IMG/VR virus record: IMGVR_UViG_2700989102_000001
Coordinates: 42,328-106,327 of that record
DNA: 64,000 nucleotides
Direction: 5' to 3' (one strand)
DNA from: a virus
Taxonomy: Duplodnaviria > Caudoviricetes
Below are positions 14,110 to 62,384 of this stretch, piece by piece (position 1 is the first letter of the stretch; each line of letters opens with the position of its first letter). Made by a program: the position numbers and the translations under genes. The notes beneath the pieces are model-generated. The model saw only the letters and a program-made list of their open reading frames with translations. It had not been told where the DNA came from and searched no databases.

Positions 14110-14355
14110 ATGAGGACCTGCACGCGCGAAGACTGCGAGCGGAAACACCACGCCAGGGGATACTGCAAGTTCCACTACAAGCGCTGGCACGACGGTGTCG
14201 ACCTAGACCGCCCCTACGGCCCCGGTCGGCTGAGGTTCTTCGACTGGGCGATGTGCGGAACGCCAGCCCAATACAAGAAGCATCTTCGGCACAACATCCC
14301 GATGTGCGAGCCGTGCCGGAAAGCGGAGAGTCGACGCCAGCAGGATCGGCCATGA
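14110..14355 (+). CDS. Zinc-finger protein
   Basis: C....C...HHARGYCKFHY; CGT...CEPC. Confidence 0.6.
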   Translation: MRTCTREDCERKHHARGYCKFHYKRWHDGVDLDRPYGPGRLRFFDWAMCGTPAQYKKHLRHNIPMCEPCRKAESRRQQDRP

Positions 14356-14660
14356 AAGATTCCTCGGAACATTTACAGGGATCTGATCATGGCGCTGATA
14401 AAATTGGACTACCCGAAGGACTGCAAGACTGGGGGCCAGCGTGCGGAATGCGAGAAGAACTTCTCACGCTCCCAGTGTGCAGAAAACCCGCTACGCACAG
14501 TCTCAACGACTGCGACAACGTCGTTTTGACTTGCCTCGAATGTCATCAAGCTTATATGGATTATCTTCGCCACGAGGTGTCCACCTTCCCCAAGGCGAAG
14601 TGCAAGACCTGCGAACAGGATGTTGATCTCCTGCTCCACCTTCAGCTGAAGAAGCTGTAA
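14352..14660 (+). CDS. Cys-rich zinc-binding protein
   Basis: CLEC, CKTC; similar pattern to 18518 and 21642 genes. Confidence 0.55.
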   Translation: MKDSSEHLQGSDHGADKIGLPEGLQDWGPACGMREELLTLPVCRKPATHSLNDCDNVVLTCLECHQAYMDYLRHEVSTFPKAKCKTCEQDVDLLLHLQLKKL

Positions 14661-14896
14661 CAACAGACTTACATCGCTTTTCACGGCGGGATGCCAGCGT
14701 TCTCCAAAGTCGATGGGGATGACGATTCCACCAGCCCTCGGGTGCCGTGTTGAGTACATAAAAATGTGACGGGTTAAGCCATAGGGGCAGAAATGCCGCC
14801 CGCGGGGACACATAAACCCCGCCGTTAGCCTTCGGGCGCGTAGACCCACTTCGGTGGAGGATCAAGCTTACCCAGTTTTTTGCAGAGAAATCTGCA
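14661..14896 (+). ncRNA. Putative structured non-coding RNA
   Basis: Gene-free gap with many helices, two C(UUCG)G loops and two AGAAAT-loop hairpins. Confidence 0.5.
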
Positions 14897-14963
14897 GCGC
14901 ACGGCCGGAACGGTCCGGCATGAATTCCGATTCATCAAGGTTCAACTCCTTGCGTGCGCACCA
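14897..14963 (+). ncRNA. tRNA-like element lacking a canonical anticodon loop, ending in ACCA
   Basis: Perfect 7-bp acceptor, 5-bp D stem with GG in loop, 6-bp stem with 4-nt loop, CAAGG-TTCAACT-CCTTG T-arm, CCA. Confidence 0.75.
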
Positions 14964-14964
14964 G

Positions 14965-14999
14965 GCCACGGGAGGTGTCTGCTCCCTCCCGTGGCTTTT
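14965..14999 (+). terminator. Intrinsic terminator
   Basis: GCCACGGGAG / CTCCCGTGGC stem followed by TTTT. Confidence 0.8.
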
Positions 15000-15027
15000 C
15001 CATGCCCATTTACCAGGAGGTAGGTCC

Positions 15028-15327
15028 ATGCGCGGATTCGACAAATACCAGCAGGCTCTGCTTGCCGGGTTGTGGGCACTGTGCGACGCCCAGCCGCCCG
15101 AGAAGCAGGAGCTGCGCCGGCTGCTCAACCCCCGCACCACGGTGACCAGCGAAGCGCACGTTGTCATGGCCACGAGGGCGGCCGAGGACTTCCACCACAA
15201 CATCCGCAAGGGTTTGACGGAGTTGTCCCGGGCCACCCAGAAATACCCTCGCTACGCCTTCGACAAGGACCGAAGGGGAACGGGTGTCCCGAATCATCGA
15301 AAGGTCAGGGTCAATGACGGTCGATAA
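15028..15327 (+). CDS. Hypothetical protein
   Basis: AGGAGG SD, ATG. Confidence 0.7.
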   Translation: MRGFDKYQQALLAGLWALCDAQPPEKQELRRLLNPRTTVTSEAHVVMATRAAEDFHHNIRKGLTELSRATQKYPRYAFDKDRRGTGVPNHRKVRVNDGR

Positions 15328-41881: not shown

Positions 41882-42444
41882 GTTACGCCTGCATCCGGTG
41901 TGAAACCCCGCTCCCGCGCAAGCGCGTCACGGGCCAGTGTCGCGAATGCTTTCTAAAGTCCAGCTCTACCGGTAAGCGCTGCGCGGACTGCGGCCGGCGC
42001 TGCAAGCGGAGCGAGGTCCGGTGCCCCGCGTGCCGCGGGGCGGCGCCCACGAGGGTGTGTCCAGACTGCGGCGGCAAGAAGACGCTTAGGTCGTTTCGCT
42101 GCTCGGGCTGCCACAACAGGCTTGTCCGGGCGGGCGAGAGGGGCAAGGATCACCGCGCCTGGAAGGGCGGCAGGGTTGAGTGCAAGGACGGGTACGTCCG
42201 CATCTACATGCCCGACCATCCGCGCGCCCATAATGGCCGGTACGTACTTGAGCATATCGCCGTAATGGAGCGGGAGCTGGGGCGATACCTGCATCCAGAC
42301 GAGCGTGTCCATCACCGCAATAAGGTGCGAAACGATAATAGGCCAGAGAACCTCGAACTCTGGTCGGTGGGGCACCCCGCGGGTGCCCGAGTCGAGGATT
42401 TGGTTACTTGGGCCAGGGAAGTGCTCACCCGCTATGACAGTTAA
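41878..42444 (+). CDS. HNH endonuclease with zinc-finger repeats
   Basis: Several CxxC; WKGG, EHIAVME..LGR, VHHRN..RNDNRPENLELW. Confidence 0.88.
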   Translation: MSYACIRCETPLPRKRVTGQCRECFLKSSSTGKRCADCGRRCKRSEVRCPACRGAAPTRVCPDCGGKKTLRSFRCSGCHNRLVRAGERGKDHRAWKGGRVECKDGYVRIYMPDHPRAHNGRYVLEHIAVMERELGRYLHPDERVHHRNKVRNDNRPENLELWSVGHPAGARVEDLVTWAREVLTRYDS

Positions 42445-45745: not shown

Positions 45746-46546
45746 ATGATTGAGCCCGAGCGGATTATGTTCCTTGGGGACACCCACGGCAACGCGGGGT
45801 GGACCCGCCAGGCAATCGACTACGCGGCCGGCAATGGCTGCGATGTTATTGTCCAGGTGGGCGACTTCGGCTTCTGGAGCGATAACGCGGACACCGCCGC
45901 ATTCCTAGCTATTACCCAGTCACGCCTGGCCAAGCACGGCATCACCCTCTACTGGGTGGACGGAAATCATGAGGATCATGATCGCCTCGCGGCCCGCCCG
46001 ACGATGCAGAAGCCGCACCATCACAGGGGGCCGTGGAGCCTGCCCGACAGCCCGAATATCATCCATCTGCCTCGCGGCTACCGCTGGCACTGGTGGGGGC
46101 AGGCTTGGATGTCATTGGGCGGTGCGGCCTCGGTTGACCGCCTCGCGCGGAAGCCAGGCAAATCCTGGTGGCCGGGGGAGACCCTGACTGACGAGGACGT
46201 GGAGTTCGCTTCGCGGCCTGGCAATGTAGACGTCATCGTTGCCCACGACGCTCCTTATGGCGTGGACATCCCCAAGATCGGCATCGGCGAACCGAATACC
46301 GACAGCGGATGGCCCTTCGCCACCCTTCTGGAGTCTTCGGAGCATCGCCGCAAGGTTCGCCAGGTGGTTGATGCCGTCCGGCCGCGGCTTTACGTACACG
46401 GCCATTACCACCTCCGCTATCAAGCTTATTGCCGGCTCCCTGGCGGGGACCGCACGCTGGTGCAGGGGCTCGACTGCGATGGCACGCCGGCACACCTGAG
46501 CACCATGTTCCTGAATAGGTCTACCCATGAGGAAATGGATAGCTAA
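45746..46546 (+). CDS. Calcineurin-like metallophosphoesterase
   Basis: GDTHG, GDFG, GNHED, GGAASVD, HDAP, HGHYH. Confidence 0.9.
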   Translation: MIEPERIMFLGDTHGNAGWTRQAIDYAAGNGCDVIVQVGDFGFWSDNADTAAFLAITQSRLAKHGITLYWVDGNHEDHDRLAARPTMQKPHHHRGPWSLPDSPNIIHLPRGYRWHWWGQAWMSLGGAASVDRLARKPGKSWWPGETLTDEDVEFASRPGNVDVIVAHDAPYGVDIPKIGIGEPNTDSGWPFATLLESSEHRRKVRQVVDAVRPRLYVHGHYHLRYQAYCRLPGGDRTLVQGLDCDGTPAHLSTMFLNRSTHEEMDS

Positions 46547-46760
46547 GGCGCTACATCGGCTGGCGGTGAGAATCCATTCGGACGAGCATTCGGAAAGAAT
46601 AGTCATCCTGGATGAGTACGAGATCATCCGCTGCCGAGTGGAGATCGCCGGGGACGACTCCCACGGCGTTGACTCCGAATATGACCTCCTACCTCCGGGC
46701 TGGACGGTTCAGCAATTTAGGGATGGGGAGCAGATTTGGACGAGTTGGAACCCGGGCTGA
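46527..46760 (+). CDS. Hypothetical protein, paralog of 35410-35667
   Basis: RKWIA..L..LA.RI. Confidence 0.6.
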   Translation: MRKWIAKALHRLAVRIHSDEHSERIVILDEYEIIRCRVEIAGDDSHGVDSEYDLLPPGWTVQQFRDGEQIWTSWNPG

Positions 46761-47002
46761 TCGCCGCCTATGACCAGCAGGTTGCGGCGTGCGATGAGTG
46801 CTTGGATAAGTTTGTTGCGACTTTCCGGGCTTTGGCGTTGGTCTTCGGTTCTACGGCGACCACGATTGAGTTTGCGAATGATTTTGTCAGGCGCGCCGAG
46901 CTTGAGGCTAGCGGCGAGGCCACTGACGAGGATTTCGGCGTGAATGTCGAGTTTTTGTCGAACCTTTTGACGGTTGCTATCAAAAGATTGGCGCAAGTAT
47001 GA
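46736..47002 (+). CDS. Hypothetical protein, paralog of 39344-39550
   Basis: LIAAYDQQ...LLTVAIKRLA. Confidence 0.6.
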   Translation: MDELEPGLIAAYDQQVAACDECLDKFVATFRALALVFGSTATTIEFANDFVRRAELEASGEATDEDFGVNVEFLSNLLTVAIKRLAQV

Positions 47003-47208
47003 TCCGCCGACCCAATGGAGACATGGTAGGCCCGCGCGACAGCGTGATCCGGGAATTGCTTACCGGTGAAGAGGTGCCAGTCGAGGACTGGGTGATGGAT
47101 CAGTCGGAGTTTGTTGACACGAACGTCTGGCGCTACTGCAAATGGTATGACCTTCCCCCGGAATTTTGGGTCGACAAGATCTATGATCACGTCGGGGAGT
47201 GTGAGTGA
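46999..47208 (+). CDS. Hypothetical protein
   Basis: Coupled ORF. Confidence 0.55.
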   Translation: MIRRPNGDMVGPRDSVIRELLTGEEVPVEDWVMDQSEFVDTNVWRYCKWYDLPPEFWVDKIYDHVGECE

Positions 47209-47537
47209 TATCCATTGCCCTGGTTGACGGCCGCCCAGTCACCCCCTGCCATACGGGCTGGCTGGTGGATGACACGGTGACCAAGGCCGCCCAGGCGGGG
47301 TTGACTTGGACCCCGGAAGACGTGCATCAGCACATTCTGATCACGATGTTCGATTACCCTATACCGCCCGAGTTTCAGTCTCGCTATGACCAGATGAATG
47401 CAGATTTGAAGCGGGTGGGTGATACGGTTTGCCATTGCGGCGCTCCGGGCGAGCGATACGCGGGTAAGAGGTACGCGGTGTGCCCGCCGTGCGCCTATAG
47501 CGTGCATGAAACCTGCTATTGCAGCGAGGGCGAGTGA
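47205..47537 (+). CDS. Cys-rich hypothetical protein
   Basis: Coupled ORF. Confidence 0.55.
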   Translation: MISIALVDGRPVTPCHTGWLVDDTVTKAAQAGLTWTPEDVHQHILITMFDYPIPPEFQSRYDQMNADLKRVGDTVCHCGAPGERYAGKRYAVCPPCAYSVHETCYCSEGE

Positions 47538-48086
47538 ACGCAGTCCGCAGGCTTGCCGCCCGCGTAGCGGTGACCGCTAGCCGAAAGACCGGCCGCCCCG
47601 TTGACCCTCGCGTGGCCCAATTGGCGGCAGATGACGATTTTCTCCGTGCGTATCAATCGGAAAAGGCACGCAGCCCGGGGCGCGCTACCCGACGGCAGGA
47701 GTGAGCGATGAACGCGTTGGGCGACAAAGAGGTTTAGGCATGTGTCAGTTTTGTGAAGATTATAAATCTACGGCGTGCGCCCTATGGGATCTCCTCTTCG
47801 AGGAGTTACGCGTGGCCATTGAGACCCCACTTGACGTGTCGGTGTTCCTCGGATGACGCAGCCTAGATTCATGCCCGGTCAGCGGGTGAGGCGCACCACC
47901 GCCAATACCTCCCTCGTCGGTACCGTGCGCGCCACTGACGGGCATTCGGCCCTCGTTGCATGGGATAACGGAACGATGGGCGCGCAGCCCGTCTCCGAGT
48001 TGCGAGAGTCCTAGCGGACCAAGAAGGGAACAGCAAAAAAATAGACCCCTCCAAGCCTCTCAACGATGCTCAAACGGGAGGGGCCG

Positions 48087-48097
48087 TGTGGTACACT
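48087..48097 (+). promoter_or_regulatory. Extended -10 promoter for the RNA island
   Basis: TGTGGTACACT about 10 nt upstream of the first hairpin. Confidence 0.6.
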
Positions 48098-48106
48098 AGA
48101 TACTAG

Positions 48107-48310
48107 TTCCGGGCGCGCAACCCGGAAGGCGCGACAGAATGCCTGTATCCGCGTGGATGCGGGGGCGGTGGCTCTCCTGCGGGCTCCCCCATATGCGCTG
48201 GGGGCGCTACGGAGAGTTTGGGACACCGCGAACGGGAATTGGCGCAAGACCGGGAAACCGGGCCTTGATGCCCCCCGTTGGGTTCGATTCCCGGGGATTC
48301 TGCTTCGCGC
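48107..48310 (+). ncRNA. tRNA-like scaffold RNA with large structured insert
   Basis: Terminal helix, D-like hairpin, GGGGGC/GCCCCC stem enclosing ~100 nt, GGG-TTCGATT-CCC T-arm. Confidence 0.6.
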
Positions 48311-48352
48311 AAAGCCCAGGAGTGGTTGCCCTGTTGAAAACTAGCAACCTAC

Positions 48353-48424
48353 GCGCTTGCGGTCGAGTTGGAAAGACTCCTGGCTTCCACCCAGGTTATG
48401 CAGGTTCGAGTCCTGTCGAGCGCT
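48353..48424 (+). tRNA. tRNA-Gly(TCC), CCA not encoded
   Basis: GCGCTTG/CGAGCGC acceptor, CCTGG-CTTCCAC-CCAGG anticodon arm, GGTTCGAGTCC T-arm, U73. Confidence 0.9.
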
Positions 48425-48745
48425 CGGAGGCTTAAGCTAACAAGCCGCCAGAAACTAAATTAGCCGATAGTTGGCAGCCCTAGACGTTAAATCACCCTGC
48501 CCGGCGTTCGCTTCCGTCGTCAACCAGAAGCATGAACTTGGTCGGAGCTTTGTGGCAGCGGGGTGGAATTAACCCCAGGCCCTCCGACCTGGCCCTACCC
48601 CCGCCCGCCTGAATACAGGTAAGTCAGAGGGGCTGACTTCGAAGGTGGCGGGACTCAAAAGGGTTTACCCAGGACGGCCCACCTGGGGATCAAAAATGGG
48701 TAACGCGAGTTCCTGCCCGCCCCTCGCAAACAAGGGCGGTGCCGA
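48425..48745 (+). ncRNA. Pseudoknot-rich structured RNA
   Basis: Gene-free; three crossing-helix pseudoknots and a 3-way junction can be drawn. Confidence 0.55.
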
Positions 48746-48797
48746 CTTTAAGGAGGTCTTTCCATGCGTTAGGTAGCTAACAATGGAAGGAGCGGTA

Positions 48798-49097
48798 ATG
48801 AGCCGCACATACAGGGATCAGAAAAAGTATCTCTACAAACACCATCACGAAGTCTGCATGCGCAGCCATTTCTACCTAGACGATGGCTCCATGCGATGGG
48901 GTTGGCGCGCGCACGACTGCGAATGCGCCGATTGGTGGGACTGGGGCATGAAGTATTGCCCGGTTCCGAGCTGGTGGAATCGCGATATTCGTAGGGCGGA
49001 GCGCGCCTTCACCCGCAACAAGATGCAACGCGCCCGCGCCGGTCACATCGACTGGTCGGCCGTGGATGAAAAGCGCGGAGATGACTATTTTTGGTGA
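48798..49097 (+). CDS. Basic Trp/Arg-rich small protein (MSRTYR...W)
   Basis: AAGGAG SD, ATG. Confidence 0.7.
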   Translation: MSRTYRDQKKYLYKHHHEVCMRSHFYLDDGSMRWGWRAHDCECADWWDWGMKYCPVPSWWNRDIRRAERAFTRNKMQRARAGHIDWSAVDEKRGDDYFW

Positions 49098-49240
49098 CTT
49101 CTACTTCATGCCCTGCGCCGCTTGCGGTGGCCGGATGCTGAGGTCCAACATGACCGCCATCTACCCCGTCGAAGGGATGATTCACAGCCAATGCGCCAAG
49201 AGGTTTGCGGAATTGGGCTTCGGCGAGTATCCGGAGGTGA

Positions 49241-49438
49241 ATGATGGCTGACTACTTCACCCGCGGGGGCCGGGGGCCTTTCGCCTCCTATTCGGAGGCC
49301 GCGGAGGTTGGCGCGCCCCTTCTGGACCTTTCCACCATCAGCGAAGACGGCTCCGAGGTGATCCGCCTACTCGCCGATGATCCGGTGCTGTTCGCCATCT
49401 TCGAGCTTGGCCGGCGGCTAGGTGAAGAGGGTCTCTAG
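49241..49438 (+). CDS. Hypothetical protein
   Basis: GGAGGT SD. Confidence 0.6.
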   Translation: MMADYFTRGGRGPFASYSEAAEVGAPLLDLSTISEDGSEVIRLLADDPVLFAIFELGRRLGEEGL

Positions 49439-49529
49439 AACGGTACGCAAATCCCGAGGTGCTGCCACCTCTCCCGTTAAGTCGGTCGGATTGCGTCGGC
49501 TGGCCCCCGCCGACTGAAGTGGGGCGGTG

Positions 49530-49601
49530 TGGCCCGTAGCTCAATTGGCAGAGCGGCCGGCGGTAATTCGGCGCGTCTCGGTTCGAGTCCGGGCGGGCTA
49601 C
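49530..49601 (+). tRNA. Atypical tRNA, anticodon GTA (Tyr-reading), G33, short variable loop
   Basis: TAGCTCAATTGGCAGAGC D-arm, GCCGG-CGGTAAT-TCGGC, CTCGG-TTCGAGT-CCGGG. Confidence 0.75.
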
Positions 49602-49617
49602 CTACTTTTCCTGTGAG

Positions 49618-50064
49618 GTGTCGATGATCCGGCCGGAAATCAGTGTAGAAAAAAGCCTGTGGTGCATCGCCCTGCCGGGGGTGCCTATCGCGGCCGAGGC
49701 GTGGTTCTGCGATACCTGCGTGACCGATTTTATCGACGCTGCCCGCGAGTACGCGTGGGATTGGACGGATCACCTGCACCGGGCGCCGAACCACGAGCAG
49801 AACGCCGACCTGGTGTGCTTCATTCAAGCCTCCACCGACCGGCAACTCCGGAATTGGGTTTTCTCGGGTCTACGGTGCGTCTGTGGGGATGTTTACGAGG
49901 ATCACGAGCCCAAAGACCTCTCGGTCCCGTTGGTGAACGATAATCCGCTCTACCCGATCCCGAACGGCTCGGTTTCGACTATCGCCACCACCAAGCCTTT
50001 CTCCACCTACGATATCGCCGCCTGCCACTGCGGCTGCACGATTTTTGATTTGTTGACCGACTAG
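49618..50064 (+). CDS. Antitoxin-like (HicB-like fold) protein with C-terminal Cys motifs
   Basis: LPGVPIAAE...IDAAREYA.DW..HL..APNH..N..LV resembles actinobacterial antitoxin C-domains (recalled, not searched). Confidence 0.55.
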   Translation: MSMIRPEISVEKSLWCIALPGVPIAAEAWFCDTCVTDFIDAAREYAWDWTDHLHRAPNHEQNADLVCFIQASTDRQLRNWVFSGLRCVCGDVYEDHEPKDLSVPLVNDNPLYPIPNGSVSTIATTKPFSTYDIAACHCGCTIFDLLTD

Positions 50065-50070
50065 GGGAAC

Positions 50071-50481
50071 ATGTCTGTCTACGATGAGGCTGTAGAGCTT
50101 CTGAGGAACAATATCGGGTCGCTACCCGATGAAGACTTCGGCCATCTCAACCTTTTTCCATTCACGTACGAATCCGACGAGACCAACGGCATCAAACTCA
50201 AGGTTTGCATGGCCATCGTGAAGCTTCTCCAGGATCACGGCTTTCTCGCCGCGGACGACGCCAAACCGCTCGACACGAGTCGTTCGGTGCGGGTGGCCTG
50301 TCAGTCCTGCGATACCGCATTGTTCAGCGTGGTGGCAGGGGAGTCGAGCGCGCTGGTGCCGGCGTCGTACTTGATTCAGCAGGTGGGCCGCTTGGACCCG
50401 AATTGCCCGCACAAGCCGATGACGCTGGATGATCAGCGCCGGCTGATTCAAGAGGCACTCGAGGAAGCGGGGAAGCAGTGA
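50071..50481 (+). CDS. Hypothetical protein
   Basis: SD plus 136-aa ORF. Confidence 0.65.
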   Translation: MSVYDEAVELLRNNIGSLPDEDFGHLNLFPFTYESDETNGIKLKVCMAIVKLLQDHGFLAADDAKPLDTSRSVRVACQSCDTALFSVVAGESSALVPASYLIQQVGRLDPNCPHKPMTLDDQRRLIQEALEEAGKQ

Positions 50482-50699
50482 ACGAAGAAGAAAAGCTCCA
50501 GATGATGGGCTCATTGATGAGCCGGATGACCGCGGCATCGGCCGAGGAAGCCCGCTTCACCGATGAGCAGATTGCAGCCCTAGTGGAGATCTTTATCCCA
50601 CGGTTTGTAACCGGTGCTCCAGGGGTTGCCCCCGCCAAGTTGTCTTGCACGGTCGATAGGGATGAAAAAGGTTGGACGATCCGGATCGACAAGCCGTGA
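50478..50699 (+). CDS. Hypothetical protein
   Basis: Coupled ORF. Confidence 0.6.
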   Translation: MNEEEKLQMMGSLMSRMTAASAEEARFTDEQIAALVEIFIPRFVTGAPGVAPAKLSCTVDRDEKGWTIRIDKP

Positions 50700-62096: not shown

Positions 62097-62384
62097 CTAG
62101 TGACGTTCCCAATCGGTGCCCTTGCGGGCGTCTGCGTCGACCGTGCGGTACGCGCGGACACGCTTGCGATACTCCGACTCGCGAACCATCTCCGCGGCGC
62201 GAATTTCGCGGACTGCGGTACCGCCGATAACATCGTTGGTGCGAGTGTCGACTAGTGCCCAAACCTTGCGTCCGCGCCGCGCGTACTCGACTACCGCCTG
62301 CGTGCCACGCGTACGGGTTGCGACTGTCTGCCACCCCGCATCGTGCAGGTCGGCGGAAACGTCGGTGATGGTTGCGTTGCTCAT
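62097..62384 (-). CDS. Hypothetical protein, probably leaderless
   Basis: ATG about 7 nt downstream of the promoter -10. Confidence 0.6.
   Translation of the reverse strand: MSNATITDVSADLHDAGWQTVATRTRGTQAVVEYARRGRKVWALVDTRTNDVIGGTAVREIRAAEMVRESEYRKRVRAYRTVDADARKGTDWERH

Follow-up and report, generated by a model that had tools for sequence, protein, structure and literature searches.

A conserved tRNA-like module without an anticodon loop, part of a larger structured RNA of mycobacteriophages, as a possible mascRNA-like processing mark

What does an RNA do in a phage when it keeps the shape of a tRNA and lacks the loop needed to decode? This question is raised by the 64,000-nucleotide (nt) stretch of DNA analysed here (the window), which corresponds to positions 42,328 to 106,327 of the IMG/VR virus record IMGVR_UViG_2700989102_000001 (Duplodnaviria; Caudoviricetes). 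At 14897-14963 the first-pass annotation had described a 67-nt, CCA-ended tRNA mimic with no anticodon loop. This description proved accurate, the sequence reading as follows:

14897-14963, + strand: tRNA-like module, GCGCACG-GCCGG-AACGGT-CCGGC-ATGAAT-TCCG-ATTCAT-CAAGG-TTCAACT-CCTTG-CGTGCGC-A-CCA
14897-14903 with 14953-14959, + strand: acceptor stem, GCGCACG with CGTGCGC
14904-14908 and 14915-14919, + strand: D stem, GCCGG/CCGGC, with the loop AACGGT (containing GG)
14920-14935, + strand: middle hairpin, ATGAAT-TCCG-ATTCAT, 6 bp with a UCCG tetraloop
14936-14952, + strand: T arm, CAAGG-TTCAACT-CCTTG, with the T loop UUCAACU
14960, then 14961-14963, + strand: discriminator A, then CCA

The four helices are fully paired with zero linker nucleotides at their junction, and both the minimum free energy structure and the centroid calculated by RNAfold are exactly this four-helix cloverleaf (-31.0 kcal/mol). 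None of 200 dinucleotide shuffles of the module was equally stable (-18.3 ± 2.7 kcal/mol; z = -4.70), and the cloverleaf was retained when folded with 306 nt of context. The element is present once in the 106,327-bp source virus genome. As had been predicted, tools for finding tRNAs miss it: the only ARAGORN calls in the window are a tRNA-Gly at 48353 and a tRNA-Tyr at 49530, with no call at the module site here or in eight module-bearing relative loci (L001-L007, L049), and the Rfam tRNA (RF00005) and transfer-messenger RNA (tmRNA) models did not match the module even at E ≤ 10. A tRNA would have a 5-bp anticodon stem and a 7-nt loop at the position where the window has 6 bp and a 4-nt loop. 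The sole Rfam match of the window module was mascRNA-menRNA (RF01684), obtained over the full model length with 23.2 bits (E = 0.019); the module of the related phage WXIN scored 20.7 bits, also over the full length, and neither reaches the gathering score of 42.5.

The 4 kb around the module match 137 phage records, all from Mycobacterium phages, the best matches being Cluster J phages (genus Omegavirus) at 96-98% identity. The element itself was found in 43 Mycobacterium phage records and occurs in two forms: the 67-nt form (27 records) and a 61-nt form (16 records, including Omega, LittleE and Courthouse) in which the middle hairpin is only ACG-AAUU-CGU (3 bp and 4 nt). All substitutions among these close relatives preserve pairing or fall in loops, the former being the changes from G-C to G-U in the D stem, from A-U to G-U in the middle stem of Wanda and from A-U to G-U in the T stem of HokkenD. 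The middle hairpin of the window (14920-14935) resembles a 6-nt tandem duplication of the Omega-type sequence (L001 1541-1550), with ATTCGT corresponding to ATTCCG-ATTCAT, and an EcoRI site (GAATTC) is present in both types of middle arm.

More distant relatives were sought via the conserved intergenic sequence upstream of the module: pattern scans with motifs of the upstream domain 1 (listed below) led to the metagenome contig L016 and to three IMG/VR proviruses (L019, L027 and L030), and tblastn with the protein encoded downstream led to the Cluster X phages Gaia and Nebkiss, of which Gaia was read. Four other pattern-scan matches (L015, L021, L040 and L042) were chance matches. The divergent modules read as follows:

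WXIN: GCGCGCA-A-GCTAG-AGGATGGT-CTAGC-9 nt-CGGGG-TTCGATT-CCCCG-TGCGCGC-A-CTC
Gaia: GCGCACA-GCCGG-GATGGT-CCGGC-ACTTCTGT-CAGG-TTCAACT-CCTG-TGTGCGC-A-CGA
L016: GCGCATG-CCCG-(10-nt loop)-CGGG-TTGA-CAGG-TTCGATT-CCTG-CATGCGC-G-CGA
L019: GGGGCGT-CAGA-ACAAGG-TCTG-AATAC-TCCGG-TTCAACT-CCGGG-GCGCCCC-A-CTA
L030: GCGTGCA-(7-bp D stem, 10-nt loop)-CGACG-ATT-CGTCG-TCGT-CCGAG-TTCGAGT-CTCGG-TGCACGC-A-CAA

In the provirus L027, a perfect 15-bp hairpin takes the place of the module, and the RNA upstream, the 3′ hairpin and the gene downstream are all present. A covariance model (R1) was built from six sequences (window, Redno2, Wanda, HokkenD, Omega and Gaia). R1 scores the window module at 100.2 bits and recovers four lineages outside its training set, namely WXIN (39.8 bits, E = 1e-7), L016 (25.1 bits, E = 5.5e-4), L030 (24.9 bits, E = 6e-4) and L019 (20.4 bits, E = 8.6e-3); in L027 it found no match at E ≤ 10. 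Elsewhere in the 64-kb window it matched only the tRNA-Gly (15.6 bits, E = 0.15) and, at 62370, one further spot (11.4 bits). One match in the provirus G001 (21.3 bits) was judged a false positive, as it has no T arm and no flanking RNA motifs and appears coding-like.

MAFFT misaligned the divergent modules, and a model-guided alignment was used that comprises 10 distinct sequences from Cluster J phages, WXIN, Gaia, two proviruses and one metagenome contig. All 162 of its 162 aligned cells in the acceptor, D and T helices form standard pairs and 12 of the 17 pairs have changed on both sides, counts to be read with the caveat that the R1-guided alignment was fitted to the structure; in the D stem of L030, R1 aligned only one pair and the 7-bp stem is a manual reading. 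None of 500 column shuffles reached any of five measures, and shifting the pairing partners by 1-3 columns made pairing fall to 22-57%. The pairs G1-C72 and G3-C70, and with them the hallmarks of a tRNA elbow (the D-loop GG, the UUCRANU T loop and the G53-C61 pair that closes it), are invariant in 10/10 sequences, and the discriminator is A in 9/10 (G in L016). The region between the D and T arms, on the other hand, spans 16, 10, 9, 8, 4-5, 5 or 17 nt, the middle arm of the relatives being 3 bp with 4 nt, 5 bp with 3 nt or a linker of 4-10 nt. A normal anticodon loop in homologues would have spoken for a private deletion in this phage: a 5-bp stem with a 7-nt anticodon loop was looked for and is absent from all 10 distinct sequences. 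With no such loop in any homologue, decay of a tRNA and a private deletion are both excluded, and the perfect pairing that the first-pass annotation had held against decay is now joined by compensatory changes. Our data thus support a genuine tRNA mimic under selection, with elbow and acceptor retained and no capacity to decode.

The 3′ end is a different matter. The annotation had stressed the encoded CCA and had noted, correctly, that the two real tRNAs in the window lack one (the tRNA-Gly is followed by TCGG and the tRNA-Tyr by CTAC). However, the alignments of 25 of the 27 records with the 67-nt form stop at base 66, and in the two of these that were read (Redno2 and Wanda) the module ends in ACCG. 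A soil-metagenome contig covering the module likewise carries A>G at 14963 (ACCG), and the 3′ ends other than CCA among the relatives are ACCG, ACTC, ACGA, GCGA, ACTA and ACAA. Absent from most close relatives and from all five divergent ones, an encoded CCA is a minority state even among the nearest relatives, so that of the elbow and CCA said to be kept by the mimic, only the elbow, together with the acceptor, is conserved, whilst the CCA belongs to part of the family.

Nor did the idea of a free-standing 67-nt gene survive: the module is one domain of a conserved, covarying RNA of about 300-400 nt, in which a domain with a five-way junction is followed by a second helix, then by the tRNA-like module and finally by a 3′ hairpin. 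This RNA lies in the interval 14661-15027 between two open reading frames (ORFs), and no reading frame is conserved there because indels of 4, 2 and 6 nt separate the Cluster J subtypes across the interval. Its parts, besides the module, are:

14703-14765, + strand: conserved 5′ lead-in, with provisional boundaries in the window; relatives carry a hairpin with the loop GGCGAGAU
14766-14881, + strand: domain 1, a five-way junction, as folded with context
14771-14779 (5′ strand) and 14866-14873 (3′ strand), + strand: P1 of domain 1, preceded by GUGAC
14784-14801, + strand: P1a of domain 1
14802-14822, + strand: P2 of domain 1
14823-14840, + strand: P3 of domain 1, with a UUCG loop, then UAGAC
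14846-14857, + strand: P4 of domain 1, with a UUCG loop, then AGGAU
14876-14881, + strand: U-rich tract after P1
14881-14896, + strand: domain 2, the hairpin UGCAGA-GAAA-UCUGCA, which abuts the acceptor stem
14964-14999, + strand: 3′ hairpin directly after the module, 12 bp (14964-14995) and UUUU (14996-14999)

In domain 1, the long-range helix P1 is formed by pairing of GGGUUAAGC with GCUUACCC and encloses the hairpins P1a, P2, P3 and P4; a P1 duplex of 7-11 bp, differing in sequence, is present in 8/8 lineages. Within P2-P4, 99.3% of 144 cells pair and double changes occur in 5/16 pairs. The covariation score of these helices was reached by 0/500 shuffles, with two weaker measures being reached more often (double-change pairs in 5/500, further pair types in 139/500), and no variation is seen in the junction strands GUGAC, UAGA and AGGAU. 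At the P4/J4-1 boundary lies a Shine-Dalgarno-like GGAGGAU (window 14858-14862) that is invariant in 9/9 aligned sequences and has no start codon after it. The GCAG/CUGC helix of domain 2 encloses two more hairpins in WXIN, Gaia, L019 and L027, and this domain is missing from L030. Upstream of domain 1, the lead-in forms a common hairpin with a GGCGAGA(U) loop in WXIN, L016 and L030. Stable tetraloops (UUCG twice, GAAA and UCCG) occur on the + strand only; a promoter scan found no sigma-70-like promoter within 14300-15200, and no Rfam family matched any part of the larger RNA in the window or in WXIN.

The 3′ hairpin had been taken for a terminator immediately following the module. For the window this holds in so far as a 12-bp hairpin and UUUU follow without a gap, although a simple terminator scan requiring five T in eight did not flag 14964-14999. 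In the relatives the hairpin is longer, with a GAGCCGG loop or a one-base variant of it in Omega, WXIN, Gaia, L019 and L027 and a less well fitting loop in L016 (GAGGCGU) and L030. Omega has UUUUUU after the hairpin, but WXIN, Gaia, L016, L019 and L027 have no U tract, and the hairpin is hence terminator-like in Cluster J only. Most records carry no annotation over the RNA region. Some GenBank records place hypothetical ORFs there (Omega gp110, L001 1393-1608; Gaia gene 73, L033 987-1136; KashFlow 96 and 97, L007 694-1103), and the start of EricMillard gene 98 is placed 18 codons upstream, within the 3′ hairpin; these annotations are probably spurious or overlong.

The RNA is followed, in every relative with downstream sequence, directly by the same gene:

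15028-15327, + strand: gene for a 99-aa protein, phrog_6612, function not assigned; three helices and a basic tail, RRGTGVPNHRKVRV

The L016 contig holds only the first 11 codons of this gene. An AlphaFold2 model of the protein (mean predicted local distance difference test score, pLDDT, 81) shows three helices, and the basic tail is conserved as GTGxPxxRKVR. The protein contains no Pfam family, its model gave no fold match in a Foldseek search against the PDB and no usable match was obtained in an ESM Atlas search; a profile search of 1.84 billion cluster representatives returned only 29 matches at E ≤ 1e-3. Neither SmpB (PF01668) nor Ro60/TROVE (PF05731) was matched in the phage genome. Genes for free-standing HNH homing endonucleases are found no more than one to three genes away from the RNA, at differing positions (WXIN, L004 491-988; Omega, L001 563-940; HokkenD, L002 2068-2403), a scatter that fits repeated homing into a conserved region.

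What, then, might the module be for? That the elbow and acceptor have been kept while the decoding arm has been lost points to a partner that reads elbow and acceptor. Three functions had been put forward for the mimic, namely a decoy, an aminoacyl carrier and an RNase P processing tag of the mascRNA type, and of these the tag fits best, given the likeness to mascRNA alone in Rfam, the position of the module and the exchange in L027; nothing specific speaks for the decoy or the carrier. We therefore tentatively favour, at somewhat less than even confidence, a mascRNA-like mark for RNase P and 3′-end processing, in the sense of analogy and not of family membership. In such a scheme, host tRNA-maturation enzymes would recognise the stack of acceptor and T arm and the elbow formed by the D loop and T loop. 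RNase P would cut 5′ of G14897 and free domains 1 and 2, whose 3′ end the GAAA-capped hairpin would close. Cleavage by a 3′ nuclease, at the discriminator or beyond it, would part the module from what follows, namely the 3′ hairpin and the mRNA downstream. CCA would be added after cleavage where it is not encoded. Through this tRNA punctuation, as at MALAT1/mascRNA, both the upstream RNA and the downstream message would be set free. We infer the transcription, the RNase P and 3′ cleavages and the roles of the released RNAs. More than half of the M. tuberculosis tRNAs need CCA addition of this kind, according to an excerpt of published work (PMC10673834).

Several observations favour a processing mark. 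The elbow and acceptor features that RNase P reads are invariant (10/10), the module always lies between the upstream covarying RNA and the 3′ hairpin, and the region of the decoding arm is free to vary in length. The exchange of module for hairpin in L027 fits a swappable processing or end-forming site. Other observations weigh against it. A sequencing-run search found no RNA sequencing run containing the region; a 178-nt contig over 14623-14798 comes from a run labelled RNA-Seq that is probably DNA, and is uninformative on expression. In the window type, the domain-2 helix abuts G+1 and leaves no single-stranded leader, which could hinder RNase P, and the CCA with which RNase P interacts is not conserved. 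The terminator-like hairpin after the module in Cluster J could set the 3′ end without a tRNA-like tag, L027 shows that the module is dispensable for the function of the remaining RNA, and the strict synteny with the basic-tailed protein could mean that the module serves within a ribonucleoprotein (RNP) as the part that binds a protein or the ribosome.

The comparison with mascRNA and MEN-beta (RF01684; 3′ ends of MALAT1 and NEAT1) shows how far the analogy reaches. In both, the helices follow one another without linkers: an acceptor stem of 7 bp, a small D hairpin, a middle hairpin that is short and closed by a tiny loop, and a T arm of 5 bp whose loop has 7 nt. Both are located 3′ of a structured RNA, and mascRNA is the only Rfam model that aligns with the module from end to end. 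mascRNA is excised by RNase P together with RNase Z, after which it receives CCA. It is, however, a vertebrate nuclear RNA, and the phage module scores far under the gathering threshold, which indicates analogy rather than homology; the phage module is moreover followed by a further hairpin and a gene.

The alternative that survives best, unlikely as we consider it, is that the module stays attached to the RNA, which would join the basic-tailed protein in an RNP that docks on machinery made to bind tRNA (ribosome, EF-Tu, CCA-adding enzyme or a synthetase), either in the manner of tmRNA and SmpB or as a titrating mimic. In each of the relatives read, the phrog_6612 gene is the immediate neighbour of the RNA; its small product has three helices and a conserved basic tail that could make it the counterpart of SmpB, and the anticodon arm of the module is missing as in the tRNA-like domain (TLD) of tmRNA, which likewise consists of acceptor and T arm. 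Such domains occur in mycobacteriophages: an excerpt of Hudson et al. 2014 (PMC4131195) lists mycobacteriophage DS6A as ‘TLD only’ and suggests titration of SmpB, a precedent for a titrating mimic. Nevertheless, the module has G3-C70 in 10/10 sequences and not the G3:U70 required for alanine charging, and its full D stem is unlike tmRNA, as is the fact that its 5′ and 3′ ends are not joined via a long P2 helix. The silence of the ARAGORN and Rfam tmRNA searches, the lack of an SmpB in the phage, the absence of an SmpB-like fold or Pfam match in the 99-aa protein and the presence of the protein without the module in L027 also speak against it. Taking the locus as a whole, it may be a phage RNP in which the RNA of about 300-400 nt with its anticodon-less tRNA mimic and the 99-aa protein engage the host translation or tRNA machinery, as a ribosome-directed complex or as a sink for acceptor-end defence enzymes; we regard this broader proposal as rather improbable.

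Two further explanations are both quite improbable in our estimation. In the first, the module would be an uncleaved 3′ structural cap that shields the upstream RNA from 3′ exonucleases, for which its place on the 3′ side of the RNA, its high stability and the long hairpin that substitutes for it in L027 can be cited; yet another long hairpin already lies 3′ of the module in all relatives, and a plain hairpin would suffice, whereas the elbow nucleotides are conserved in 10/10 sequences. In the second, the module, once freed and given CCA, would be a decoy for toxins acting on the acceptor end (nucleotidyltransferases of the MenT/AbiEii type, toxSAS). According to excerpts of the literature, the MenT toxins encoded by mycobacteria extend the 3′ ends of tRNAs; the acceptor stem is kept, with A as discriminator in 9/10 sequences, and the orphan abiF RNA motif of this phage (see below) makes RNA-based counter-defence conceivable. 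Against this, CCA is unencoded in most relatives, the conserved upstream domains and the linkage to the protein are left unexplained, each genome has a single copy with no sign of high expression, and one lineage (L027) has lost the module. As it has no anticodon loop, the module cannot be a decoy for anticodon nucleases.

An aminoacyl carrier, charged by an anticodon-blind synthetase and used by a tRNA-dependent transferase, is very unlikely: acceptor stem, elbow and discriminator A (9/10) are kept and G1-C72 and G3-C70 are invariant, but the rest of the acceptor varies freely (GCGCACG, GCGCGCA, GCGCATG, GGGGCGU, GCGUGCA), L016 has G as its discriminator, there is neither a G3:U70 pair nor a long variable arm, and no transferase gene was seen beside the module in the loci read. 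That the region is a decaying tRNA or a private deletion, or codes for protein as the records with ORFs across it (Omega gp110, Gaia gene 73) would have it, is hardly credible in view of 100% pairing with compensatory changes across lineages, the lack of any relative with an anticodon loop, the frame-breaking indels between subtypes and the missing annotation in most records.

Elsewhere in the window, the Rfam abiF RNA motif has a full-length match at 48047-48083 (+ strand; 54.9 bits, gathering score 37); the tRNA-Gly of the phage lies about 270 nt further downstream. All ORFs within 46300-50600 are ≤ 266 aa and none is AbiF-sized, judged by length and not by a protein-family scan; this orphan phage copy could be an antitoxin-like RNA mimic. 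The 260 G+C-rich nucleotides between the motif and the tRNA-Gly (48090-48350, + strand) contain several hairpins and a T-arm-like GGGTTCGATTCCC (about 48280-48295), with no call by ARAGORN, Rfam at E ≤ 5 or R1.

tRNA-like modules within non-coding RNAs are already known from tmRNA, YrlA, mascRNA and viral 3′ tRNA-like structures. Plant RNA viruses with their 3′ tRNA-like structures, and phages with RNAs processed by RNase P (the C4 RNA of P1/P7, the M3 RNA of phi80 and the species 1 and 2 RNAs of T4), borrow the tRNA shape to engage host tRNA enzymes, as the module may. Unlike the module, the plant structures are genomic 3′ ends that are aminoacylated and keep an anticodon-like arm, and the P1/P7 C4, phi80 M3 and T4 RNAs either lie in tRNA operons or resemble a tRNA in no more than the acceptor/T minihelix. 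The bacterial and mycobacteriophage Y RNAs termed YrlA share with the module a domain of D and T arm within a larger non-coding RNA that is a substrate of tRNA enzymes, as described in an excerpt of Chen et al. 2014 (PMC4201824). YrlA differs, as far as this excerpt goes, in ending on a Ro-binding stem and in its permuted topology, its ‘acceptor’ being a closed loop where our module ends at an acceptor stem, and it adjoins a Ro60 gene, whereas this phage has no TROVE protein and its RNA no Rfam match. A search of the full-text literature on tRNA-like RNAs in mycobacteriophages and phages found no description of the present RNA: Pope 2013 makes no mention of non-coding RNA, small RNA or a terminator, Wetzel 2020, on RNA-based replication origins, is silent on Gaia, Cluster J, Cluster X and tRNA, and none of six IMG/VR identifiers occurs in the searchable supplements, three files left out, of a catalogue of viral structured RNAs (10,006 csRNAs). 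The multi-domain RNA family linked to a protein gene is thus apparently undescribed.

Mimicry of tRNA in the non-coding RNAs of bacterial viruses is known from few cases (tmRNA and YrlA), and the module adds a natural experiment in which acceptor stack and elbow were kept over at least six divergent phage lineages and the decoding arm shrank to nothing. It also exposes an unannotated multi-domain RNA family, tied to the phrog_6612 protein, in the well-studied Cluster J and X mycobacteriophages, and as the host of these phages is M. smegmatis, the idea of a mascRNA-like processing mark is directly testable.
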